Shown one piece after another: positions 8,958-59,103 of a stretch of DNA of 64,000 nucleotides (its first letter is position 1; the number at the start of each line of letters is the position of its first letter). Source of the stretch: Shigella phage Sfk20. Both the position numbers and the translations under genes were made by a program. The stretch is from sequence record MW341595. One strand, given 5' to 3'. The notes beneath the pieces were generated by a model that was given only the letters and a program-made list of their open reading frames with translations, was not told where the DNA came from and made no database searches.

Positions 8958-8984
8958 CACTTATCCTCGTTTGGTTTCGGGAAT

Positions 8985-9009
8985 ATTATACTCCGGTAAT
9001 CATAAAGCT
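8985..9009 (-). promoter_or_regulatory. candidate MotA-dependent middle promoter upstream of 39
   Basis: Reverse complement aGCTTTA-12 nt-TATAAT (one mismatch to the MotA box). Confidence 0.35.
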
Positions 9010-9027
9010 AAAGGCCCGAAGGCCTTT
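9010..9027. terminator. perfect GC stem-loop AAAGGCC-CGAA-GGCCTTT
   Basis: Palindrome read from sequence between the 39.1-like ORF and 39. Confidence 0.45.
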
Positions 9028-19013: not shown

Positions 19014-19348
19014 TCACAAGATGTAGATGAACAACTAGAATCACAAGAACTTCCACATGAATCGCCCGTCCATACATGAACAGGAACATTAGTATCATAT
19101 GAATCAGAACTAGACTGTGTATTCTGCGCATTAGATGATGTAGGTGTTGACCAACGCCAAGGATTTTTATAATATTCCTGGGCTTCTTCATAAGTCATAG
19201 TAACTGCTTCTACTGTTCCATCTCCCATATAAACATATTCAACTACAGTTAAAGGGAGGTAGTCATTTGAAATAGGAACTACACCTTCTCCGGGAGTCGT
19301 AGAGAAAAAATCCGTAAAGAAACTTTTAAACCAATTAAAGATAAACAT
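19010..19348 (-). CDS. hypothetical protein, 112 aa, Cys/Ser-rich C-terminal tail ([18 protein letters not shown])
   Basis: ORF track; low-complexity tail visible in translation. Confidence 0.5.
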
Positions 19349-19560
19349 TACAAAAAGCCTCTTTGAAATTCGACTCTTTGAAATCCACCCCAGTCAGTGT
19401 ATCGCATTTCAGCATTGAACTCGACTGAACCATCTGCATGCATCATGAATGAATGCGTGACGATATCACAATCCCAGCTTTTCATACCCCATTTATCAGA
19501 GATAGCTTTATCAAGAACCTTCTGGAGGTCTTCATTTGGTTTAATCCAACGATTTAACAT
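19348..19560 (-). CDS. hypothetical protein, 70 aa
   Basis: ORF track; preceded by early promoter 19587-19615. Confidence 0.45.
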   Translation of the reverse strand: MLNRWIKPNEDLQKVLDKAISDKWGMKSWDCDIVTHSFMMHADGSVEFNAEMRYTDWGGFQRVEFQRGFL

Positions 19561-19586
19561 AGTGCTCTCCTCTATAAGATAATTCT

Positions 19587-19615
19587 ATTATACCATACTT
19601 GTTTTGGAAAGTAAA
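19587..19615 (-). promoter_or_regulatory. early (sigma70-type) promoter
   Basis: Reverse complement TTTACT-17 nt-TATAAT. Confidence 0.6.
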
Positions 19616-19631
19616 CCGGTAAAATGAAAAA

Positions 19632-19651
19632 AGGACTCCCGAAGGAGTCCT
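19632..19651 (-). terminator. rho-independent terminator downstream of soc
   Basis: Stem aggactcc/ggagtcct, loop cgaa, followed on the minus strand by a U-run. Confidence 0.65.
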
Positions 19652-19658
19652 TGAATTA

Positions 19659-19904
19659 TTAACCACCAGTTACTTTCCACAAATCTTCGTTTGCAGTAAT
19701 CCATGCATCACGTTGATTTTCTTCGTATACAGTAGTATATGCTGCTTTTTCTGAAGGGAATGTCTGGTAATGAGCGCCAGAAATTTTGTGAACGTCAGAA
19801 TAAAGAGGGAAAGCTACAGAAATTTCCTTTCCTTCAATTTTCTTATTTCCATCTAATTTCTGCTCAAATGTTTTAATATTAACATAACCGCGAGTACTAG
19901 CCAT
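19659..19904 (-). CDS. soc: small outer capsid protein Soc
   Basis: MASTRGYVNIKTFEQKLDGNKKIEGKEISVAFPLYSDVHKISGAHYQTFPSEKAAY... recognised as T4 Soc-like. Confidence 0.9.
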   Translation of the reverse strand: MASTRGYVNIKTFEQKLDGNKKIEGKEISVAFPLYSDVHKISGAHYQTFPSEKAAYTTVYEENQRDAWITANEDLWKVTGG

Positions 19905-19934: not shown

Positions 19935-19942
19935 TATTTATA
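19935..19942 (-). promoter_or_regulatory. late promoter TATAAATA upstream of soc
   Basis: Exact TATAAATA on minus strand about 30 nt upstream of soc ATG. Confidence 0.65.
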
Positions 19943-27848: not shown

Positions 27849-28229
27849 TCACTTAGTCAAATTTTTTACACATGAATTATAAGAATTCACTACATACTCC
27901 ATCGGAGCATTTTTACCTGTGCGCCATTGGTAATTATTAGCCCAATTAGCCCAAAGTTCGGCGCAGTAGTTTTCAATTTTTTCTTCGCGTGTAATTACAT
28001 CTGAATTACGATATGCTTGAGCAGATTCATCTGGACGAATAGCTTCGTCAAAATTCGCCTGCATTTGTTCTACTGTCTGTTTTGGAGCCTCTTTATAACA
28101 CTTAACATTAGGATTATAAAATTTGCTTGAACAATTTACAATTTTTCCTGCATCAGACTGATTTACTACCGGTCCTTGAGCTACACAACCAGTAAGACCC
28201 AATGCAATAACCAAAATAGCGATTTTCAT
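27849..28229 (-). CDS. putative lipoprotein (imm.1 position), 126 aa
   Basis: ORF track trimmed to ATG 28227-28229; MKIAILVIALGLTGC... lipobox; GGAG SD in conserved leader. Confidence 0.55.
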   Translation of the reverse strand: MKIAILVIALGLTGCVAQGPVVNQSDAGKIVNCSSKFYNPNVKCYKEAPKQTVEQMQANFDEAIRPDESAQAYRNSDVITREEKIENYCAELWANWANNYQWRTGKNAPMEYVVNSYNSCVKNLTK

Positions 28230-28263
28230 TTCATTCTCCAAATCTGTATCAGTTGATAGTTAT

Positions 28264-28292
28264 ATAGTACCAAAGAGGAACAGTCTTGTAAA
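28264..28292 (-). promoter_or_regulatory. early (sigma70-type) promoter with conserved leader
   Basis: Reverse complement TTTACA-17 nt-TACTAT. Confidence 0.6.
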
Positions 28293-28382
28293 CAGTTTTG
28301 TGAAAAATTTTTTAATGAATTCCAAAGGTCCAGAATCATCTATTTTTTCCTAAGTATAGATTTATATTACTTGTATGAAAAA

Positions 28383-37661: not shown

Positions 37662-37821
37662 ATATCAAGAACCGTCATTGAAATGCAAAATAAAATTATT
37701 GAAATAAATCCATCTGGAGTGCTAAAGAACCCAATCCAACATGCTCTAGTGAATAGATAAAACGCGAGAAAAAGTATCACATATCCAAGAAATATCATTA
37801 TATCAAACTCCGTATAAAGCT

Positions 37822-37839
37822 AAAGGGCCGAAGCCCTTT
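37822..37839. terminator. GC stem-loop AAAGGGC-CGAA-GCCCTTT overlapping the alpha-gt stop
   Basis: Palindrome read from sequence. Confidence 0.45.
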
Positions 37840-39040
37840 ATTTTGTAATAATGTCAAACTGTTCTTTAAAGCAGAAGCTTGAATCTTGATGCTGATACAA
37901 AAATTCATAAGCTTTTTCGCGTTCACGGTCATAAAGATTTCGGTCAGATGACAGTTCTTTAATACGCTCAAATGTTGATTCCATGTCATTTTCATCAAAC
38001 CAAACGATACCGCTATCATGAGAAATTAACGGAGTATTATCAACACGGAATTTTAAATTTTCGCCAGTAGATTTCCAAAATACTGGAATTGTTCCACATG
38101 CACCAAGCTCGAGATGAGTATATTCTAAAGAACGTTGTAGATATTTTTTATCCAACTTACTCAGCTGATAACCAAATCCGGATTTACTCATGCGTTCAAG
38201 CATTTCGCTATTTACATAACGGTCAAGAATTTGCGTTGGCAAATTAGGAGCAATTTTAATTTGGTCTACTTGATGAAGACGATAATACTCATATGGAATT
38301 CCTTTTTCTTTAATAGGAATGAACGCAGGAGAACGTTCCAGACCTTCCATAATAGTACTTAGCCCAGCAGGTTTAAGATGTTTTTCGTGAAAATCAAACA
38401 TCTGATAAAAACCTTTCCATGTAGTCGTACGACCAATCCAACGGTTGACATTCATGTTAATTTCAGAAACATCTTTCCAGTAGGTTGATCGAACTTTCGC
38501 AATATCCATAGGAGGCTGAAAGTTGTATACGGTCGGTGCTTCTTCAATATCATCAAACAGAGAAACGGTTTCTGGATACCATTCTTTCATCAGAACTTTA
38601 TTAAAATCACCATTATCAGAATGACTAAAAATAACATCTGCTCGACGAACAGTTTCTTCTAATCCCAAATTTCGGCGCAAAGAAAGAGAAGAATGGTCAT
38701 GTTGATAAACTACAACACGAACCGAAGGTTTAATGTTATCAATAATTTTTTTATAGTTATTAATAGTGTCTTCTTCGACTGAAGTAGCAGGAACTGAATT
38801 GATAATTAGAATATCACAATCATTTACCAGCTTAAGTGTTTTATCGTATTCTTTTGCCAATAAAACCGGAATTGAAAATGATTTATAATCATGCGCGCAA
38901 TTACGGGTAAATGATTTATCTTTAGCATAAACCAAAGTTACTTCATGACCATTTTTAATAAACCAATCACGCTGCTCGAGAGAAAATTTAGTTACGCCGC
39001 AACCTTCAAGACCTCGAGCCATAAAAATGCATACTTTCAT
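37838..39040 (-). CDS. a-gt: alpha-glucosyltransferase (hydroxymethylcytosine DNA)
   Basis: 400 aa; MKVCIFMARGLEGCGVTKFSLEQRDWFIKNGHEVTLVYAKDK... recognised as T4 alpha-gt-like. Confidence 0.9.
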   Translation of the reverse strand: MKVCIFMARGLEGCGVTKFSLEQRDWFIKNGHEVTLVYAKDKSFTRNCAHDYKSFSIPVLLAKEYDKTLKLVNDCDILIINSVPATSVEEDTINNYKKIIDNIKPSVRVVVYQHDHSSLSLRRNLGLEETVRRADVIFSHSDNGDFNKVLMKEWYPETVSLFDDIEEAPTVYNFQPPMDIAKVRSTYWKDVSEINMNVNRWIGRTTTWKGFYQMFDFHEKHLKPAGLSTIMEGLERSPAFIPIKEKGIPYEYYRLHQVDQIKIAPNLPTQILDRYVNSEMLERMSKSGFGYQLSKLDKKYLQRSLEYTHLELGACGTIPVFWKSTGENLKFRVDNTPLISHDSGIVWFDENDMESTFERIKELSSDRNLYDREREKAYEFLYQHQDSSFCFKEQFDIITK

Positions 39041-39064
39041 TTAATATCCTCATTGTTTTGGTTT

Positions 39065-39088
39065 ATTTTACCAAAAATTTATAAAGCA
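39065..39088 (-). promoter_or_regulatory. candidate MotA-dependent middle promoter upstream of alpha-gt
   Basis: Reverse complement TGCTTTA-11 nt-TAAAAT. Confidence 0.45.
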
Positions 39089-39090
39089 AT

Positions 39091-39110
39091 ATAGGAGCCG
39101 AAGCTCCTAT
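39091..39110 (-). terminator. GC stem-loop ataggagc-cgaa-gctcctat
   Basis: Palindrome read from sequence, overlapping stop of small ORF 39107..39280. Confidence 0.45.
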
Positions 39111-52568: not shown

Positions 52569-53096
52569 TTATGCGAGTACCGTCTTTAACCGTTCTTCAA
52601 ACTTCCGAAGAGTATTTTGGCGTTCAGCTCTTTGCTTTTTGTAAGTTTCAATACGCTCTGAAATGAGAGTGTATCGTTCATTTACCGATTCTTTCATAAA
52701 ATCAGGAATTTCACGAGAAGCTTTAATCTCGTCAAATTTATCAATAACAGCTTGCTCTTCAGCAATTAAGTTATCATACATCAAAATATCTTTCTTGATG
52801 AACTCAATATCTTCTTGAGTTACACGAGATAATTTAGATGCTTTATCCTTTTTGTACTGTTCATTAGTATCACGAGACCAGTGTAATGTACGATTTTTAT
52901 TCGTATTCTTGTAAATTTCTACAATACCGATCTCATCGATAATAACGATCCAATTCCAACGGGATTTGTAAATTTGTCCTCCATCAACAGTGATTTCACC
53001 TCCGATTGAGATGTCATTAAAGAACTTGCTTTGTGCCTCAGATTTAAATTTACCATCGTTGTAATTTACCAAGTTGAAAATATCTTTAGCGTTCAT
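52569..53096 (-). CDS. hypothetical protein, 175 aa, C-terminal coiled coil
   Basis: ORF track; ATG 53094-53096 with GGAGG SD. Confidence 0.5.
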   Translation of the reverse strand: MNAKDIFNLVNYNDGKFKSEAQSKFFNDISIGGEITVDGGQIYKSRWNWIVIIDEIGIVEIYKNTNKNRTLHWSRDTNEQYKKDKASKLSRVTQEDIEFIKKDILMYDNLIAEEQAVIDKFDEIKASREIPDFMKESVNERYTLISERIETYKKQRAERQNTLRKFEERLKTVLA

Positions 53097-53124
53097 TTTC
53101 TGTTCCTCCGTAGTTGATAGTTGT

Positions 53125-53153
53125 ATAGTACCACAGAGGAACAGTCTTGTAAA
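53125..53153 (-). promoter_or_regulatory. early (sigma70-type) promoter
   Basis: Reverse complement TTTACA-17 nt-TACTAT; cassette near-identical to 2107-2156. Confidence 0.6.
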
Positions 53154-53156
53154 CCA

Positions 53157-53471
53157 CTAAAAGAAACTTCTTTCACAATTTTTTCCACTGAACCATGCAC
53201 TTACCGCTTTCTTAGTCTCAGGAGCAGTGTTATCCATAAACCATTCAAAGGCAGCCTTTTTGTGATTCTGGAGGGCTTCTCGGGCTTTAATCTGCTCACG
53301 GTCTATTAACACTAACATATGAGCCTTTCTTGTCACCATGGGCTTCTTATGATTTTTTGAATACTCCCAGTCATTTGTCCATCGCATTGTCGTTGCGAAC
53401 TGAAATACTGCTTCTTTAATTTTAGTTTCGTAAATTTCACGAGCCTTTGAGTATAACATCACTACCTCCAT
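53157..53471 (-). CDS. hypothetical protein, 104 aa
   Basis: ORF track. Confidence 0.45.
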   Translation of the reverse strand: MEVVMLYSKAREIYETKIKEAVFQFATTMRWTNDWEYSKNHKKPMVTRKAHMLVLIDREQIKAREALQNHKKAAFEWFMDNTAPETKKAVSAWFSGKNCERSFF

Positions 53472-53560: not shown

Positions 53561-54529
53561 TTATTTCAGAAGAGTAACCTCAGCGATTTCTTCCCAACCA
53601 TTTTTGTCGGTCATAATAAAGTCAGCAAGATAAAGAGCAGTACGCAGTGAAACATTGCGTAAACGATTAACATTAACTTTCATCCATGATAATGCTTTAT
53701 AAGTTTCTTCATCAGAAAGACCACGCTTTTGCATCATGTCAGTTGAAAGAATAACATCTTCAACCCTGACCATAATTTCTTCATTAGTGTGAACACCCAA
53801 ATCTAAATAAACTGAGCGGGACACTAATGCTTGTAAATGTGGAGCAAGTTTAGTACCACGGTCTAATTCGCGGTCAATGTCAACGTTTGTGATAAAAACA
53901 ATCGTTCCTTTAAATTCAAACTCACGCTCAATGCCTTTTTCTTCTAAGTAAGAAGATGCAGTGCTCCAGCAGACTTTACGGGTCTCTCCAGTGTCCAGAG
54001 CGGCTTTTAGAAGATTAAGAATGTCCATATCAGAGAAAACATCCACATCATCAATCAAAAGGACAGAATTCTCTTCACGATTATTCCAAAGCTGCTCATA
54101 AAGACCAATACCAGAGATTTTACCATTAATGCTTTTATATTCAATGTATCCAATATCATTTGCTTTATTTAAAGCTTTATCTAAAGAATACGTTTTACCA
54201 ATACCTGCTGCGCCAGAGATAATTAATGAACGAATATTTCCGTTAATAATACCATTCGTCATCATTCCCATAACATTAAATCTTTTATTAATGCGGGTTT
54301 TCATATCTTCATATGATTCTTTAACTTCTTCAACTTTTACACCATCATATGAAATATCTGATTTGTAAACCCAAACACCGCGACGTTTACCGTCAATTTC
54401 AACAAAAACTTTACCATCTCCTTGCGCATCTACTGGAGCATTATCTGGGAACCATTCGCCTAAGAGCTCAAAAGTTCCAGAGATTTCTTTACCGAAGTAG
54501 ATACCCTTATTGATAGTTACAGTTTTCAT
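53561..54529 (-). CDS. P-loop NTPase, 322 aa
   Basis: ORF track 53561..54598 trimmed to ATG 54527-54529 (GGAGaataaa leader); Walker A GAAGIGKT, Walker B LLIDDVD. Confidence 0.6.
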   Translation of the reverse strand: MKTVTINKGIYFGKEISGTFELLGEWFPDNAPVDAQGDGKVFVEIDGKRRGVWVYKSDISYDGVKVEEVKESYEDMKTRINKRFNVMGMMTNGIINGNIRSLIISGAAGIGKTYSLDKALNKANDIGYIEYKSINGKISGIGLYEQLWNNREENSVLLIDDVDVFSDMDILNLLKAALDTGETRKVCWSTASSYLEEKGIEREFEFKGTIVFITNVDIDRELDRGTKLAPHLQALVSRSVYLDLGVHTNEEIMVRVEDVILSTDMMQKRGLSDEETYKALSWMKVNVNRLRNVSLRTALYLADFIMTDKNGWEEIAEVTLLK

Positions 54530-54574
54530 TTTATTCTCCAAATCCGTATCAGTTGATAGTTGTATAGTACCATA

Positions 54575-54592
54575 GGGAGCCCGAAGGCTCCC
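54575..54592 (-). terminator. GC stem-loop gggagcc-cgaa-ggctccc
   Basis: Palindrome just downstream of the NTase stop, directly abutting a -10 element and conserved leader. Confidence 0.45.
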
Positions 54593-54594
54593 TA

Positions 54595-55608
54595 TCATTT
54601 ATAATAACTTCGGTGGTTTTCAAGATAAACCCTCTCAAGGAAGTCATCCCAGAAACCCATGTCTACTTTTTGCTGCATACCGTTCTTAGAAGCTTCAATG
54701 GATGCTGCTTCTACTTGATCGACCACATCTTCCAAAAACTCTTGAACAGTTTTAAATGGATGTTTACCCAACTTCACGTCGAGAATAAATGGAGCGTCTT
54801 GAAGTGGATAGACTAAGTCACCAGTTTTGTAAATTTCCAATAGTTGGAGCCCACCACGACAAGCATGACTCAGAGCTTTCCAGTCAATGCCCTCATTCGC
54901 TTCAGCCTTACGAGCACGTTCGCCGTATTCAGCATCAAGTTTATTCAAAGATTGCTTAAGCTCGATAAGAGAAAGTGTTGTTTGATATTTACGACCCAAC
55001 ACAGTGTAGAACGTTTGTGGACCTGTTTTCTCATGATTATGGAATACCCATTCACAGAATTCGTTCTCTGGAAGACGATGCTTAATATCTTCAACTTTAG
55101 TTCGACGCTGCTTAATGGAACCGTCTTCTTGGTAATCAACCCATTGCTCAGGGATTTGATTAACTACTTTCAATACATCACGTAATGCGGCCAAACGAGA
55201 ACCCTTAACACCGTATTTAGAAGCTTGCTTGCGAACATATCCTAAGTAGGATTTCATGTTAGTCGTATAAAAACGAGAACGATTGTCTTGAATAAACTTC
55301 CATACATCAGGCAAATCAGATTTAATTACTAGTTCCGGTGGAGTGTGGAGCATATCCAATGCTACAGTTTCACCATCTGCTGCTAATTTAAAGAAATACT
55401 TAAGACTGTATAGTTCATGGTCAATATCATCTTTAGTGTTTTTAGATGATGTGTTGTTAGTGTTTTTACTCATATGCTCTTTAACATTTCCGATAAGAAT
55501 ATCACGAGCAGGAGGAACAAAGATTTCTTTAAAATCTACATCAGATTCTGGAGTAGAAGTTCCATAAAGATGACTACCAAAATAGCTTTTCATTACTGTT
55601 TTCATCAT
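54595..55608 (-). CDS. putative nucleotidyltransferase (Pol-beta superfamily fold), 337 aa
   Basis: N-terminal GS-x9-DxD signature (GSHLYGTSTPESDVDF) in ORF-track translation. Confidence 0.55.
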   Translation of the reverse strand: MMKTVMKSYFGSHLYGTSTPESDVDFKEIFVPPARDILIGNVKEHMSKNTNNTSSKNTKDDIDHELYSLKYFFKLAADGETVALDMLHTPPELVIKSDLPDVWKFIQDNRSRFYTTNMKSYLGYVRKQASKYGVKGSRLAALRDVLKVVNQIPEQWVDYQEDGSIKQRRTKVEDIKHRLPENEFCEWVFHNHEKTGPQTFYTVLGRKYQTTLSLIELKQSLNKLDAEYGERARKAEANEGIDWKALSHACRGGLQLLEIYKTGDLVYPLQDAPFILDVKLGKHPFKTVQEFLEDVVDQVEAASIEASKNGMQQKVDMGFWDDFLERVYLENHRSYYK

Positions 55609-57681: not shown

Positions 57682-57921
57682 TTAAACTCTCGTATTATGA
57701 TCGATAATTTCATCAAGAAACATATCTAAAGCTTCTACAGCATTATCAACTTTAGCTTCAAGTTCTTCAGCACCTTTATTTGCAATGCCCGACGAAAACC
57801 AAGCAAAGTCACTAAGTTCCTCATCTGCTTTGCGAATTAAAGCTACCAATTCTTTAATTTTATCTGCTTGTTCAATGCTAATCATTATTCCACCACATAT
57901 GAAAGAGAGAATATTGCACAC
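57682..57921 (-). CDS. hypothetical protein, 79 aa
   Basis: ORF track. Confidence 0.45.
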
Positions 57922-58073
57922 GCCATGTGAGTTGCAGCTTCATCACACATATCATAACGTTTCTTAAGAAGTTCTACAAGTTCTTCACTAGTAACGTCAT
58001 CCATGTTGACGAAAAAATCACCATTAATGATGACGTAGATGTTTCCTTCTTGATTGAGTGCTTCAATTTTCAT
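57885..58073 (-). CDS. hypothetical protein, 62 aa
   Basis: ORF track 57885..58118 trimmed to ATG 58071-58073 with GAGGAG SD. Confidence 0.4.
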
Positions 58074-58100
58074 GATGTTCTCCTCTTTATCCGATAGTTG

Positions 58101-58129
58101 TATAGTATCACAGCTCAAATGGAAAGTAA
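58101..58129 (-). promoter_or_regulatory. early (sigma70-type) promoter
   Basis: Reverse complement TTTACT-17 nt-TACTAT. Confidence 0.6.
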
Positions 58130-58145
58130 ACCGGTAAAATGAAAA

Positions 58146-58163
58146 AAGTCTCCCGAAGGAGAC
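58146..58163 (-). terminator. rho-independent terminator
   Basis: Stem gtctcc/ggagac, loop cgaa, U-run on the minus strand; same module as 19632-19651. Confidence 0.6.
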
Positions 58164-58168
58164 TAATG

Positions 58169-58555
58169 TTATTCGAGGGAAAGAAGATATTTGCTCTGGT
58201 AAAACATCCCAGTAATATCATCTATCGTGCTTTGAATGGCTGGAGGCATTTCTTTATAAATGCTGTTAGATTGGTCTAGTATGCGATCAATCATTTTAAT
58301 TGTGTCGGTAGGAAGTTTACTGGCATCTGGAATAGAAGGCGTGTATTTTCTACCAGAATACCCCAAATATTGCTCACCAAATTTATCAATCAAATCTGGC
58401 AACTCAGAGAAAATAAAATCGTATGCTTTGTGTCTAGCATAACTTTTAGTTTCAAAATGCGCAGAATGAAAATAAGCTTGTGCAGCCATTAATAAACCTA
58501 AGTATTCATCTGCCTTTGAAGGTTTTCCACTTTGTGAAAAGTCGCTGAATTTCAT
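58169..58555 (-). CDS. hypothetical protein, 128 aa
   Basis: ORF track. Confidence 0.5.
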
Positions 58556-58845
58556 TCAGTCTCCAATTTAATGTTCATAATTCTAGCGTATGATTGTGCC
58601 ATCTCCGCGCCTCGCTCTATACATTCAAAATCGGAAGAGCACGGGTCATTTTTATAAGTCGTTCGCATAAAACTATAGAACTGTTCAGATGATTCTACGC
58701 TTTTATTTTCAAAAAGCGTGTAAACATGTCTAATACCAGATTCCATAAATTTATCAAAATGAGGATCGACATTCGCTTCAATTGGTGGAGATAAAGCAAA
58801 CGCTAATCCTAGCATGGCAAATAGTGCCGTTGCTTTTAAGGCCAT
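58552..58845 (-). CDS. rI: lysis inhibition regulator rI
   Basis: 97 aa; MALKATALFAMLGLAFALSPPIEANVDPHFDKFMESGIRHVY... recognised as T4 RI-like. Confidence 0.9.
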   Translation of the reverse strand: MALKATALFAMLGLAFALSPPIEANVDPHFDKFMESGIRHVYTLFENKSVESSEQFYSFMRTTYKNDPCSSDFECIERGAEMAQSYARIMNIKLETE

Positions 58846-58857
58846 AAAGGCCTCCTA

Positions 58858-59070
58858 TCATTTTTGTCCTGTATTTACTTTATGCCGATGCACGGCCTTA
58901 ACTTTATCAAGGTATTTTTCAAAATTTCGCAATCTAGTATAGTCTGCCGGAGATTGGTTGAGTGATACTTCTCGACGCAAAGCTGAAATGATATTTCCAA
59001 CTTCCCTACGAATTTCATCTAATTGAAGAACAGTAAGATTGCGAAGTTGCTTTTCAGTTAATTGTAGCAT
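58858..59070 (-). CDS. hypothetical protein (rI.1 position), 70 aa
   Basis: ORF track; AAGGGG SD. Confidence 0.5.
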
Positions 59071-59095: not shown

Positions 59096-59103
59096 TATTT
59101 ATA
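59096..59103 (-). promoter_or_regulatory. late promoter TATAAATA upstream of rI.1/rI
   Basis: Exact TATAAATA on minus strand about 26 nt upstream of the rI.1 ATG. Confidence 0.6.

Follow-up and report, generated by a model that had tools for sequence, protein, structure and literature searches.

What is a short block of DNA that recurs letter for letter at two distant places doing in the genome of Shigella phage Sfk20? The stretch analysed here, which we call the window, is the 64-kb segment of sequence record MW341595 in which both places lie. It belongs to a Tequatrovirus (T4-like) genome in which the minus strand carries the early genes, and both regions are 95–99% identical to several hundred Tequatrovirus genomes. 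According to the records of relatives and of T4, with which the open reading frames of the window agree, the genes at both regions lie on the minus strand. Site 1 falls between soc and a homologue of mrh.2 (assigned by T4 synteny and an identical start, MLNRW), and site 2 falls between rI.-1 and a homologue of mobD.5 (assigned by T4 annotation and an identical start, MKIEA). We are highly confident that each copy is a minus-strand composite of a terminator and an early promoter of a T4-like phage. Features of this kind have been described before, and the window contains two ordinary examples of a T4-type intrinsic terminator fused to an early promoter. The positions of all features are collected in Table 1.

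Table 1. Features of the two sites, their flanking genes, and other C(UUCG)G hairpins in the window
Feature	Position in window	Strand	Basis
28-nt identical block, copy 1 (T-run, CATTTTACCG, GTTTAC, TTTCCA)	19605..19632	.	sequence comparison
28-nt identical block, copy 2	58120..58147	.	sequence comparison
Hairpin, copy 1 (AAGGACUCC-UUCG-GGAGUCCUU, 9 pairs, loop 19640-19643)	19631..19652	-	fold, terminator scan, orthologue covariation
Hairpin, copy 2 (AGUCUCC-UUCG-GGAGACU, 7 pairs, loop 58154-58157)	58147..58164	-	fold, scan, fPS-65 and other records
U-run, copy 1 (six T)	19627..19632	-	sequence; terminator scan
U-run, copy 2 (six T)	58142..58147	-	sequence; terminator scan
Predicted early promoter, copy 1	19587..19616	-	scan (10/12 matches, TG present); T4 and ASO78A annotation
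Predicted early promoter, copy 2	58102..58131	-	sequence; prediction in fPS-65
GAGGAG ribosome-binding site, site 1	19567-19572	-	sequence
GAGGAG ribosome-binding site, site 2	58080-58085	-	sequence
soc (small outer capsid protein), 81 aa, upstream of copy 1	19659..19904	-	ORF; relatives' matches annotated soc
mrh.2 homologue, 70 aa, first gene the copy 1 promoter would serve	19348-19560	-	ORF
rI.1, upstream of copy 2	58858-59070	-	ORF; T4 annotation
rI, upstream of copy 2	58552-58845	-	ORF; T4 annotation
rI.-1, directly upstream of copy 2	58169-58555	-	ORF; T4 annotation
mobD.5 homologue, first gene the copy 2 promoter would serve	57885-58073	-	ORF
Late-promoter match TATAAATA, 31 nt upstream of soc start	19935..19942	-	exact T4 consensus
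Late-promoter match TATAAATA, 26 nt upstream of rI.1 start	59096..59103	-	exact T4 consensus
13 C(UUCG)G hairpins, 6-10 pairs, 5' ends	874, 3517, 3746, 9027, 19652, 24560, 31184	-	
13 C(UUCG)G hairpins, remaining 5' ends	33128, 37840, 39110, 41477, 54595, 58164	-	

The identity that drew attention to the locus is real. The 27-mer GGAAAGTAAACCGGTAAAATGAAAAAA occurs exactly twice in the window, at 19606-19632 and 58121-58147 on the plus strand, so that the initial annotation had the duplication right and its coordinates wrong by one base at two ends. Allowing up to three mismatches brought up no further match in the window, and 100 dinucleotide shuffles contained none, with none expected by chance. 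One extra base (T) extends the identity to 28 nt. A local alignment with a single gap spans 43 nt at 95% identity, starting in the inner stem and taking in the -35 region (GTTTACTTTCCA), with E = 1.4e-12 within the window, and ungapped similarity of 75% continues over 72 nt as far as the ribosome-binding site (repeat family D10).

Read on the sense strand, site 1 runs from the soc stop codon through the hairpin, six U, CAUUUUACCG and GTTTAC to a 17-nt spacer ending in TGG, then TATAAT, about 15 nt, GAGGAG, and the ATG of mrh.2. Site 2 begins at the rI.-1 stop codon and has its own hairpin, six U and the same CAUUUUACCG-GTTTAC, followed by a 17-nt spacer ending in TGA, TACTAT, GAGGAG, and the ATG of mobD.5. 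Both downstream homologues have a GGAG Shine-Dalgarno sequence at the ribosome-binding sites of Table 1. At site 2, the published consensus for strong RegB cleavage, GGAGRAYARAA (PMC3014915), is matched over its first eight bases by GGAGAACA; the GGAG within the hairpin stems, being base-paired, should be shielded.

A hairpin does adjoin each block, as had been proposed, but the loop described as cgaa is the plus-strand reading. Because the genes lie on the minus strand, the loop in the RNA is UUCG closed by a C-G pair, and the plus-strand run of six A is a U-run. Folding of the two RNA segments bears the hairpins out, giving -15.1 kcal/mol (z = -3.8) for copy 1 and -10.8 kcal/mol (z = -3.6) for copy 2 relative to shuffled sequences. 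The C(UUCG)G tetraloop is very stable. G-C pairs make up five of the nine pairs of the copy 1 stem and four of the seven of copy 2, both loops are 4 nt long, and at copy 1 the first two T of the U-run pair with AA at the foot of the stem. Each hairpin stands in sense orientation just beyond a gene, starting 6 nt past the soc stop codon and about 4–7 nt past that of rI.-1.

A consensus scan returned a terminator-like call with a T-run for both copies, and on the minus strand only; the copy 2 stem was also listed on the plus strand, where tails are not T-rich. In a stricter scan of the whole window, the copies were two of seven minus-strand sites with a hairpin plus T-run, and the only two of those seven to combine a UUCG loop with an unbroken T-run. 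In the records of ASO78A, fPS-65, and G2469, these sites are annotated with a terminator, with or without an accompanying early promoter, and several further phage records have terminators annotated at both. Together, the T-run-tailed folds after stop codons and the annotations in relatives support the original description of two intrinsic terminators, each joined to the early promoter that follows it. The published description of T4 terminators is similar, with a GC-rich stem, a loop of 4 nt, and a poly(U) tail (PMC2988022), and a review (PMC4371310) cites a 1988 report of a UUCG hairpin in T4 mRNA; from T4 C(UUCG)G hairpins and intrinsic terminators the two copies do not differ substantially, and both are ordinary examples. 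A search against Rfam gave matches at chance level, far below the gathering score, at site 1 and none at site 2. The 3' ends of T4 soc transcripts have been examined, although the review that reports this gives no position (PMC3014915), and the T4 omics and DksA papers mention neither these genes nor these terminators.

Downstream of the T-run, copy 1 has GTTTAC at 19611-19616, a 17-nt spacer, TGG at 19593-19595, and TATAAT at 19587-19592; its sigma-70 hexamer is TTTACT, and it scores 10/12 against the sigma-70 consensus. Copy 2 has GTTTAC at 58126-58131, a 17-nt spacer, TGA at 58108-58110, and TACTAT at 58102-58107, and with 8/12 matches to the plain sigma-70 consensus by hand count it is weak and falls below the threshold of the generic scan. 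Both fit the published PST/T4 form TTTACW-N17-TAYWAT (PMC4122927), and both resemble about 20 GTTTAC...TGGTAyTAT promoters on the minus strand of the window. At the orthologue of site 1, the T4 record M30001 in GenBank names "early promoter 14.95", which has the same flanking genes, -35, TGn, and -10 and differs in the spacer from the T-run to the -35, TTTTACCGG here versus TTTAAATGG in T4. ASO78A has a "rho-independent terminator" and a "T4 early promoter" annotated at site 1, and fPS-65 has a terminator and a predicted early promoter at site 2. For site 2, we found predictions only and no named experimental promoter.

One element of the initial annotation fails outright: the U-run does not overlap the -35 of the promoter, since ten bases (CATTTTACCG) lie between it and GTTTAC. 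With the -10 box taken as -12 to -7, the U-run falls within the UP-element zone (about -47 to -52), and the hairpin occupies about -53 to -74; TTTTTTCATTTTA forms an A/T-rich upstream region at about -40 to -52. T4 early promoters belong to the UP/-35/TGn/-10 class (PMC2988021), and the 23 candidate early promoters of the window are T-rich 10–14 nt upstream of GTTTAC. At that upstream position, 6 of the 23, including these two sites, have TTTTCA, which has a background frequency of 0.0005 per nt. Because both occupy about -47 to -52, the terminator T-run coincides with the T-tract of the promoter family, and the same bases therefore probably serve both as the U-tract of the terminator and as part of the A/T-rich upstream element of the promoter.

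We compared the two stems pair by pair, and they differ as described with pairing kept. Counting from the loop, pairs 1–4 are identical (C-G, C-G, U-A, C-G); at pair 5 copy 1 has A-U where copy 2 has U-A, and copy 1 is longer by two pairs. The step from this covariation to selection on RNA structure is weak if the two copies stand alone, because all that they offer is a single flipped pair and stems of unequal length; it gains its support from soc orthologues in other genera. Within Tequatrovirus the stems are invariant at each site (about 13 site 1 and 11 site 2 sequences from phage records, viral contigs, and metagenomes), and close relatives are therefore uninformative on covariation. A search with a 21-base anchor returned 8 viral and 14 metagenome loci, which were close relatives except for two chance matches and which revealed the polymorphism of the site 1 spacer; a 14-base anchor (GGTTTACTTTCCAWWT) run against viral contigs gave nothing but chance matches among the matches listed.

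Beyond the genus, the soc hairpin is retained with other stem sequences in Dhakavirus, Mosigvirus, Mosugukvirus, Gaprivervirus, Karamvirus, Gelderlandvirus, Winklervirus, Marfavirus, and a Klebsiella phage. The stem is GGACUCC/GGAGUCC in Tequatrovirus, PM2, and PWKp18, GGAAUCC/GGAUUCC in VR5 and Mosigvirus, GGAACC/GGUUCC in UP19, GGGAACC/GGUUCCC in VR25, and GGGACUCC/GGAGUCCC in PG7 and a Gelderlandvirus, all with a UUCG loop. Roth01 has the T4 stem with a UCCG loop and CHI14 a different stem with a 5-nt loop, so that 11 of 13 soc orthologues have UUCG with C-G closure. The T-run is present in all soc orthologues examined except Roth01, which has UUUUAU. We aligned, anchored on the loop, 10 distinct sequences comprising nine soc orthologues and site 2 of the window; 95.6% of cells are paired and five of nine pairs change on both sides, counts that may be inflated because loop anchoring makes differences in stem length look like pair changes. 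The covariation score of these 10 sequences is 0.467 versus 0.157 for shuffled alignments, none of 500 shuffles attained the observed score, and slid registers of the alignment reach at most 68% paired. Unpaired stem substitutions in relatives, which the initial annotation had named as evidence against its reading, occur once, in T2. There the soc hairpin (600-712 of the T2 locus) reads GGAAUCC-UUCG-GGGUUCA. Its stem contains a single G.U pair and a single mismatch; six pairs, the UUCG loop, and the T-run are retained, and the whole T2 soc intergenic region folds at only -14.6 kcal/mol. The T2 hairpin is thus weakened, and the reading is not overturned. Across genera, the alignment of homologous loci makes selection for pairing in this hairpin well supported as an interpretation of the sequences.

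What follows the soc terminator differs among these phages. A GTTTAC-type early promoter comes next in Tequatrovirus, Dhakavirus, and Mosigvirus. In PM2, VR25, CHI14, PG7, a Gelderlandvirus, and PWKp18, the terminator is followed by TTTTT(T)GCTTT...TA(T/G)AAT, the MotA-box middle-promoter pattern, a fusion that resembles the "PmSL" (stem-loop plus middle promoter) of Comeau et al. (2014), whereas the copies in the window carry early (-35 type) and not MotA-box promoters. Judged by these patterns, the class of promoter predicted to restart transcription after soc varies between genera, and the presence of a soc terminator plus promoter across them suggests that the stop-restart arrangement is old. 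In Klebsiella T4-like phages, a hairpin AAGGAAUCC-UUCG-GGAUUCCUU with a T-run lies beside the long-tail-fibre genes (for example NC_031095, 122792-122821), which suggests that this terminator sequence also stands after other late genes.

All 13 C(UUCG)G hairpins of at least six pairs in the window lie on the sense strand. Seven of them have AAGGGC/GCCCUU, or a sequence close to it, as their stem (repeat families D3, D7, and D11), and most of the 13 lack a T-run and are therefore probably not terminators. Three on the minus strand (37840..37790, 9027..8980, and 39110..39060) are directly followed by (T)GCTTTA, with TATAAT about 12–13 nt beyond at 37840 and 9027 and only a weak TAAAAT at 39110; this MotA-box pattern suggests that cassettes of a stem-loop and a middle promoter also occur in the window. 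The other repeat families, D1-D8 and D11, are mostly promoter and hairpin cassettes. One early-promoter cassette repeats together with its 5' leader and ribosome-binding site (2094-2160 versus 53092-53158, 90% over 67 nt), further repeats of this kind lie at 28231-28297, 2574-2626, 28223-28275, and 54523-54575 (families D1 and D6), and some are far longer than the pair formed by sites 1 and 2. At 54610..54540 (minus), a 10-pair UUCG hairpin (54595..54572) abuts GGTACTATACAACTATC, a -10 plus leader of the early-promoter family. This hairpin occupies the place where a -35 would be, and just upstream of it is TATAAATG, one mismatch from the late-promoter consensus; the segment may be a degraded or rearranged cassette.

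Both sites lie at the ends of units that begin with a late-promoter match. The exact consensus TATAAATA has three matches in the window, counting both strands, versus about 9.9 expected from shuffles, a scarcity that fits avoidance of late promoters in the early region. Only two of the matches in the 64 kb are on the minus strand, one before soc and one before rI.1; a late promoter is annotated at the soc place in ASO78A and predicted at the rI.1 place in fPS-65. From these positions it follows that the two cassettes end the only two minus-strand units opened by an exact late-promoter match. In T4, soc is a late gene that is also carried on longer early and middle transcripts, in which its ribosome-binding site is masked (PMC3014915, PMC2988022).

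These features suggest how the cassette would work. In the transcript of a polymerase leaving soc or rI.-1, a G+C-rich hairpin capped by C(UUCG)G would form ahead of six U, which together would act as a standard Rho-independent terminator and leave the upstream mRNA with a protected 3' end. Ten bases further on, the T4-type early promoter, with its GTTTAC, 17-nt spacer, TGn, and TATAAT or TACTAT, would be used by unmodified host sigma-70 polymerase right after infection, which would transcribe mrh.2 onward at site 1 and mobD.5 onward at site 2. The effect would be insulation, in that late and early read-through transcripts would be kept out of the downstream early genes while those genes retain an early start of their own. 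Such an insulating role is likely, as judged from the layout of just two late-unit cases. More tentative, and in our view somewhat doubtful, is the fuller proposal of a single dedicated insulator of late units, duplicated in the Tequatrovirus ancestor from an ancient soc junction to the end of the rI unit, which would have a T-run selected for dual use as U-tract and UP element and would exist specifically to wall off late units that lie inside early regions.

Could the block have a different job? The hairpins might act mainly after transcription, as barriers to 3' exonucleases or as folding nuclei that stabilize the upstream mRNA, with little termination and mostly read-through. Many sense-strand C(UUCG)G hairpins of the window (33128, 3746, and 24560, for example) lack a T-run and are therefore not classical terminators, so this type of hairpin has other uses, and the review of UUCG hairpins (PMC4371310) relates that the first study of them proposed a folding nucleation site. 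We nevertheless consider a mainly post-transcriptional role unlikely at these two sites, since among the UUCG hairpins of the window these are the ones that directly precede an unbroken six T, and the T-run, the defining feature of a terminator and one that a 3' barrier would not need, is retained by all the soc orthologues examined but Roth01. A role of this kind can also coexist with termination. That the block instead codes on the plus strand, for instance through a small ORF starting in the shared ATGAAAAAAG, merits almost no credence. The shared block does contain an ATG, and at site 2 an ORF of 46 aa runs from 58139 to 58279, but at site 1 the same ATG yields 12 codons only, the products diverge after MKK, and the annotated genes there are all on the opposite strand. 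Dhakavirus, Mosigvirus, and T2 moreover have CGT for CAT and so lack the ATG; we rejected the small ORF.

The likeness of the copies also admits other origins. GTTTAC, TTTCC, the T-tract, and the C(UUCG)G loop all recur in the window, so that two independent sites might have come to look alike by convergence on the same consensus elements; this we judge improbable, because the identity also covers non-consensus bases, CATTTTACCG and the inner stem CUCC/GGAG, which are absent from the other candidate early promoters and UUCG hairpins of the window, and because the 43-nt alignment is so significant. Somewhat less improbable, though still not favored, is recent recombination, either ectopic gene conversion or a mobile cassette of the promoter-early stem-loop (PeSL) type, in which case near-identity would say little about function. 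Site 2 was found in Tequatrovirus only (two places per record, versus one in Dhakavirus and Mosigvirus). The site 1 spacer (19617-19620, four bases before GGTTTAC) is polymorphic, with TACC, TACT, AAAT (T4), AAAC, and in PST a form 1 nt shorter; at site 2 it is always TACC, and only the TACC form of site 1 equals it. PeSLs have also been proposed to recombine with one another (PMC2839356, PMC4122927). The outgroup VR5 (Dhakavirus), however, has TTTTACTGG at site 1 with the spacer TACT, so TAC(C/T) looks ancestral and the T4 AAAT derived, and the exact identity in the window therefore requires no recent conversion. The spacer variants occur in mixed combinations with the flanking soc alleles, which ordinary recombination between phages would explain. 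Both junctions are also stable, with the same neighbors in 703 of 726 records at site 1 and 498 of 509 at site 2 (records retaining at least 80% of a 141-nt query across both flanking genes). An old ancestral duplication is possible and compatible with the terminator-plus-promoter reading, and duplication of the cassette in the Tequatrovirus ancestor would be the simplest account. In phage Shinka, the one exception seen to this stability, about 4.2 kb is missing downstream of the site 2 promoter (window 58100 joined to 53859), with a 9-nt microhomology, GTGGTACTA, at the junction (2579-2590 of the Shinka locus) between the promoter -10 region and coding sequence; we rejected this deletion as PeSL-mediated, as its distal end lies within coding sequence and no second cassette is present.

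PeSLs were described in RB49/phi1 and then in PST/T4 (Arbiol et al. 2010, PMC2839356; Comeau et al. 2014, PMC4122927), the latter having a stem-loop immediately upstream of TTTACW-N17-TAYWAT (PMC4122927). Like them, each copy sets a stem-loop and an A/T-rich stretch before an early promoter of sigma-70 type, which leads into a Shine-Dalgarno sequence and the start codon of a small gene of unknown function; the copies also recur within the genome (family D10), so that the structural definition of a PeSL and its repetition apply to both. PeSLs are notable, however, for recombination, gene shuffling, and mini-circles, whereas the sites here are stable in some 500–700 genomes, and the junction counts reveal no pattern of PeSL-type insertions, deletions, or gene replacements among relatives. 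Their stems also fit the quoted "AGNA-loop-TCNT" form only loosely. The PST record contained no PeSL annotation, and the text of the PeSL paper does not name soc, mrh, rI, or mobD.

Beyond correct annotation, the two copies have little significance. For annotation, the composite of terminator and early promoter would mark where the soc mRNA and the rI-unit mRNAs end and where the mrh.2 and mobD.5 early transcripts begin. Of modest interest are the T-run that a terminator probably shares with the next promoter and the fact that the copies close the sole two late units of their strand. As a compact natural "stop-and-restart" part, the cassette could be tested or reused for phage engineering.
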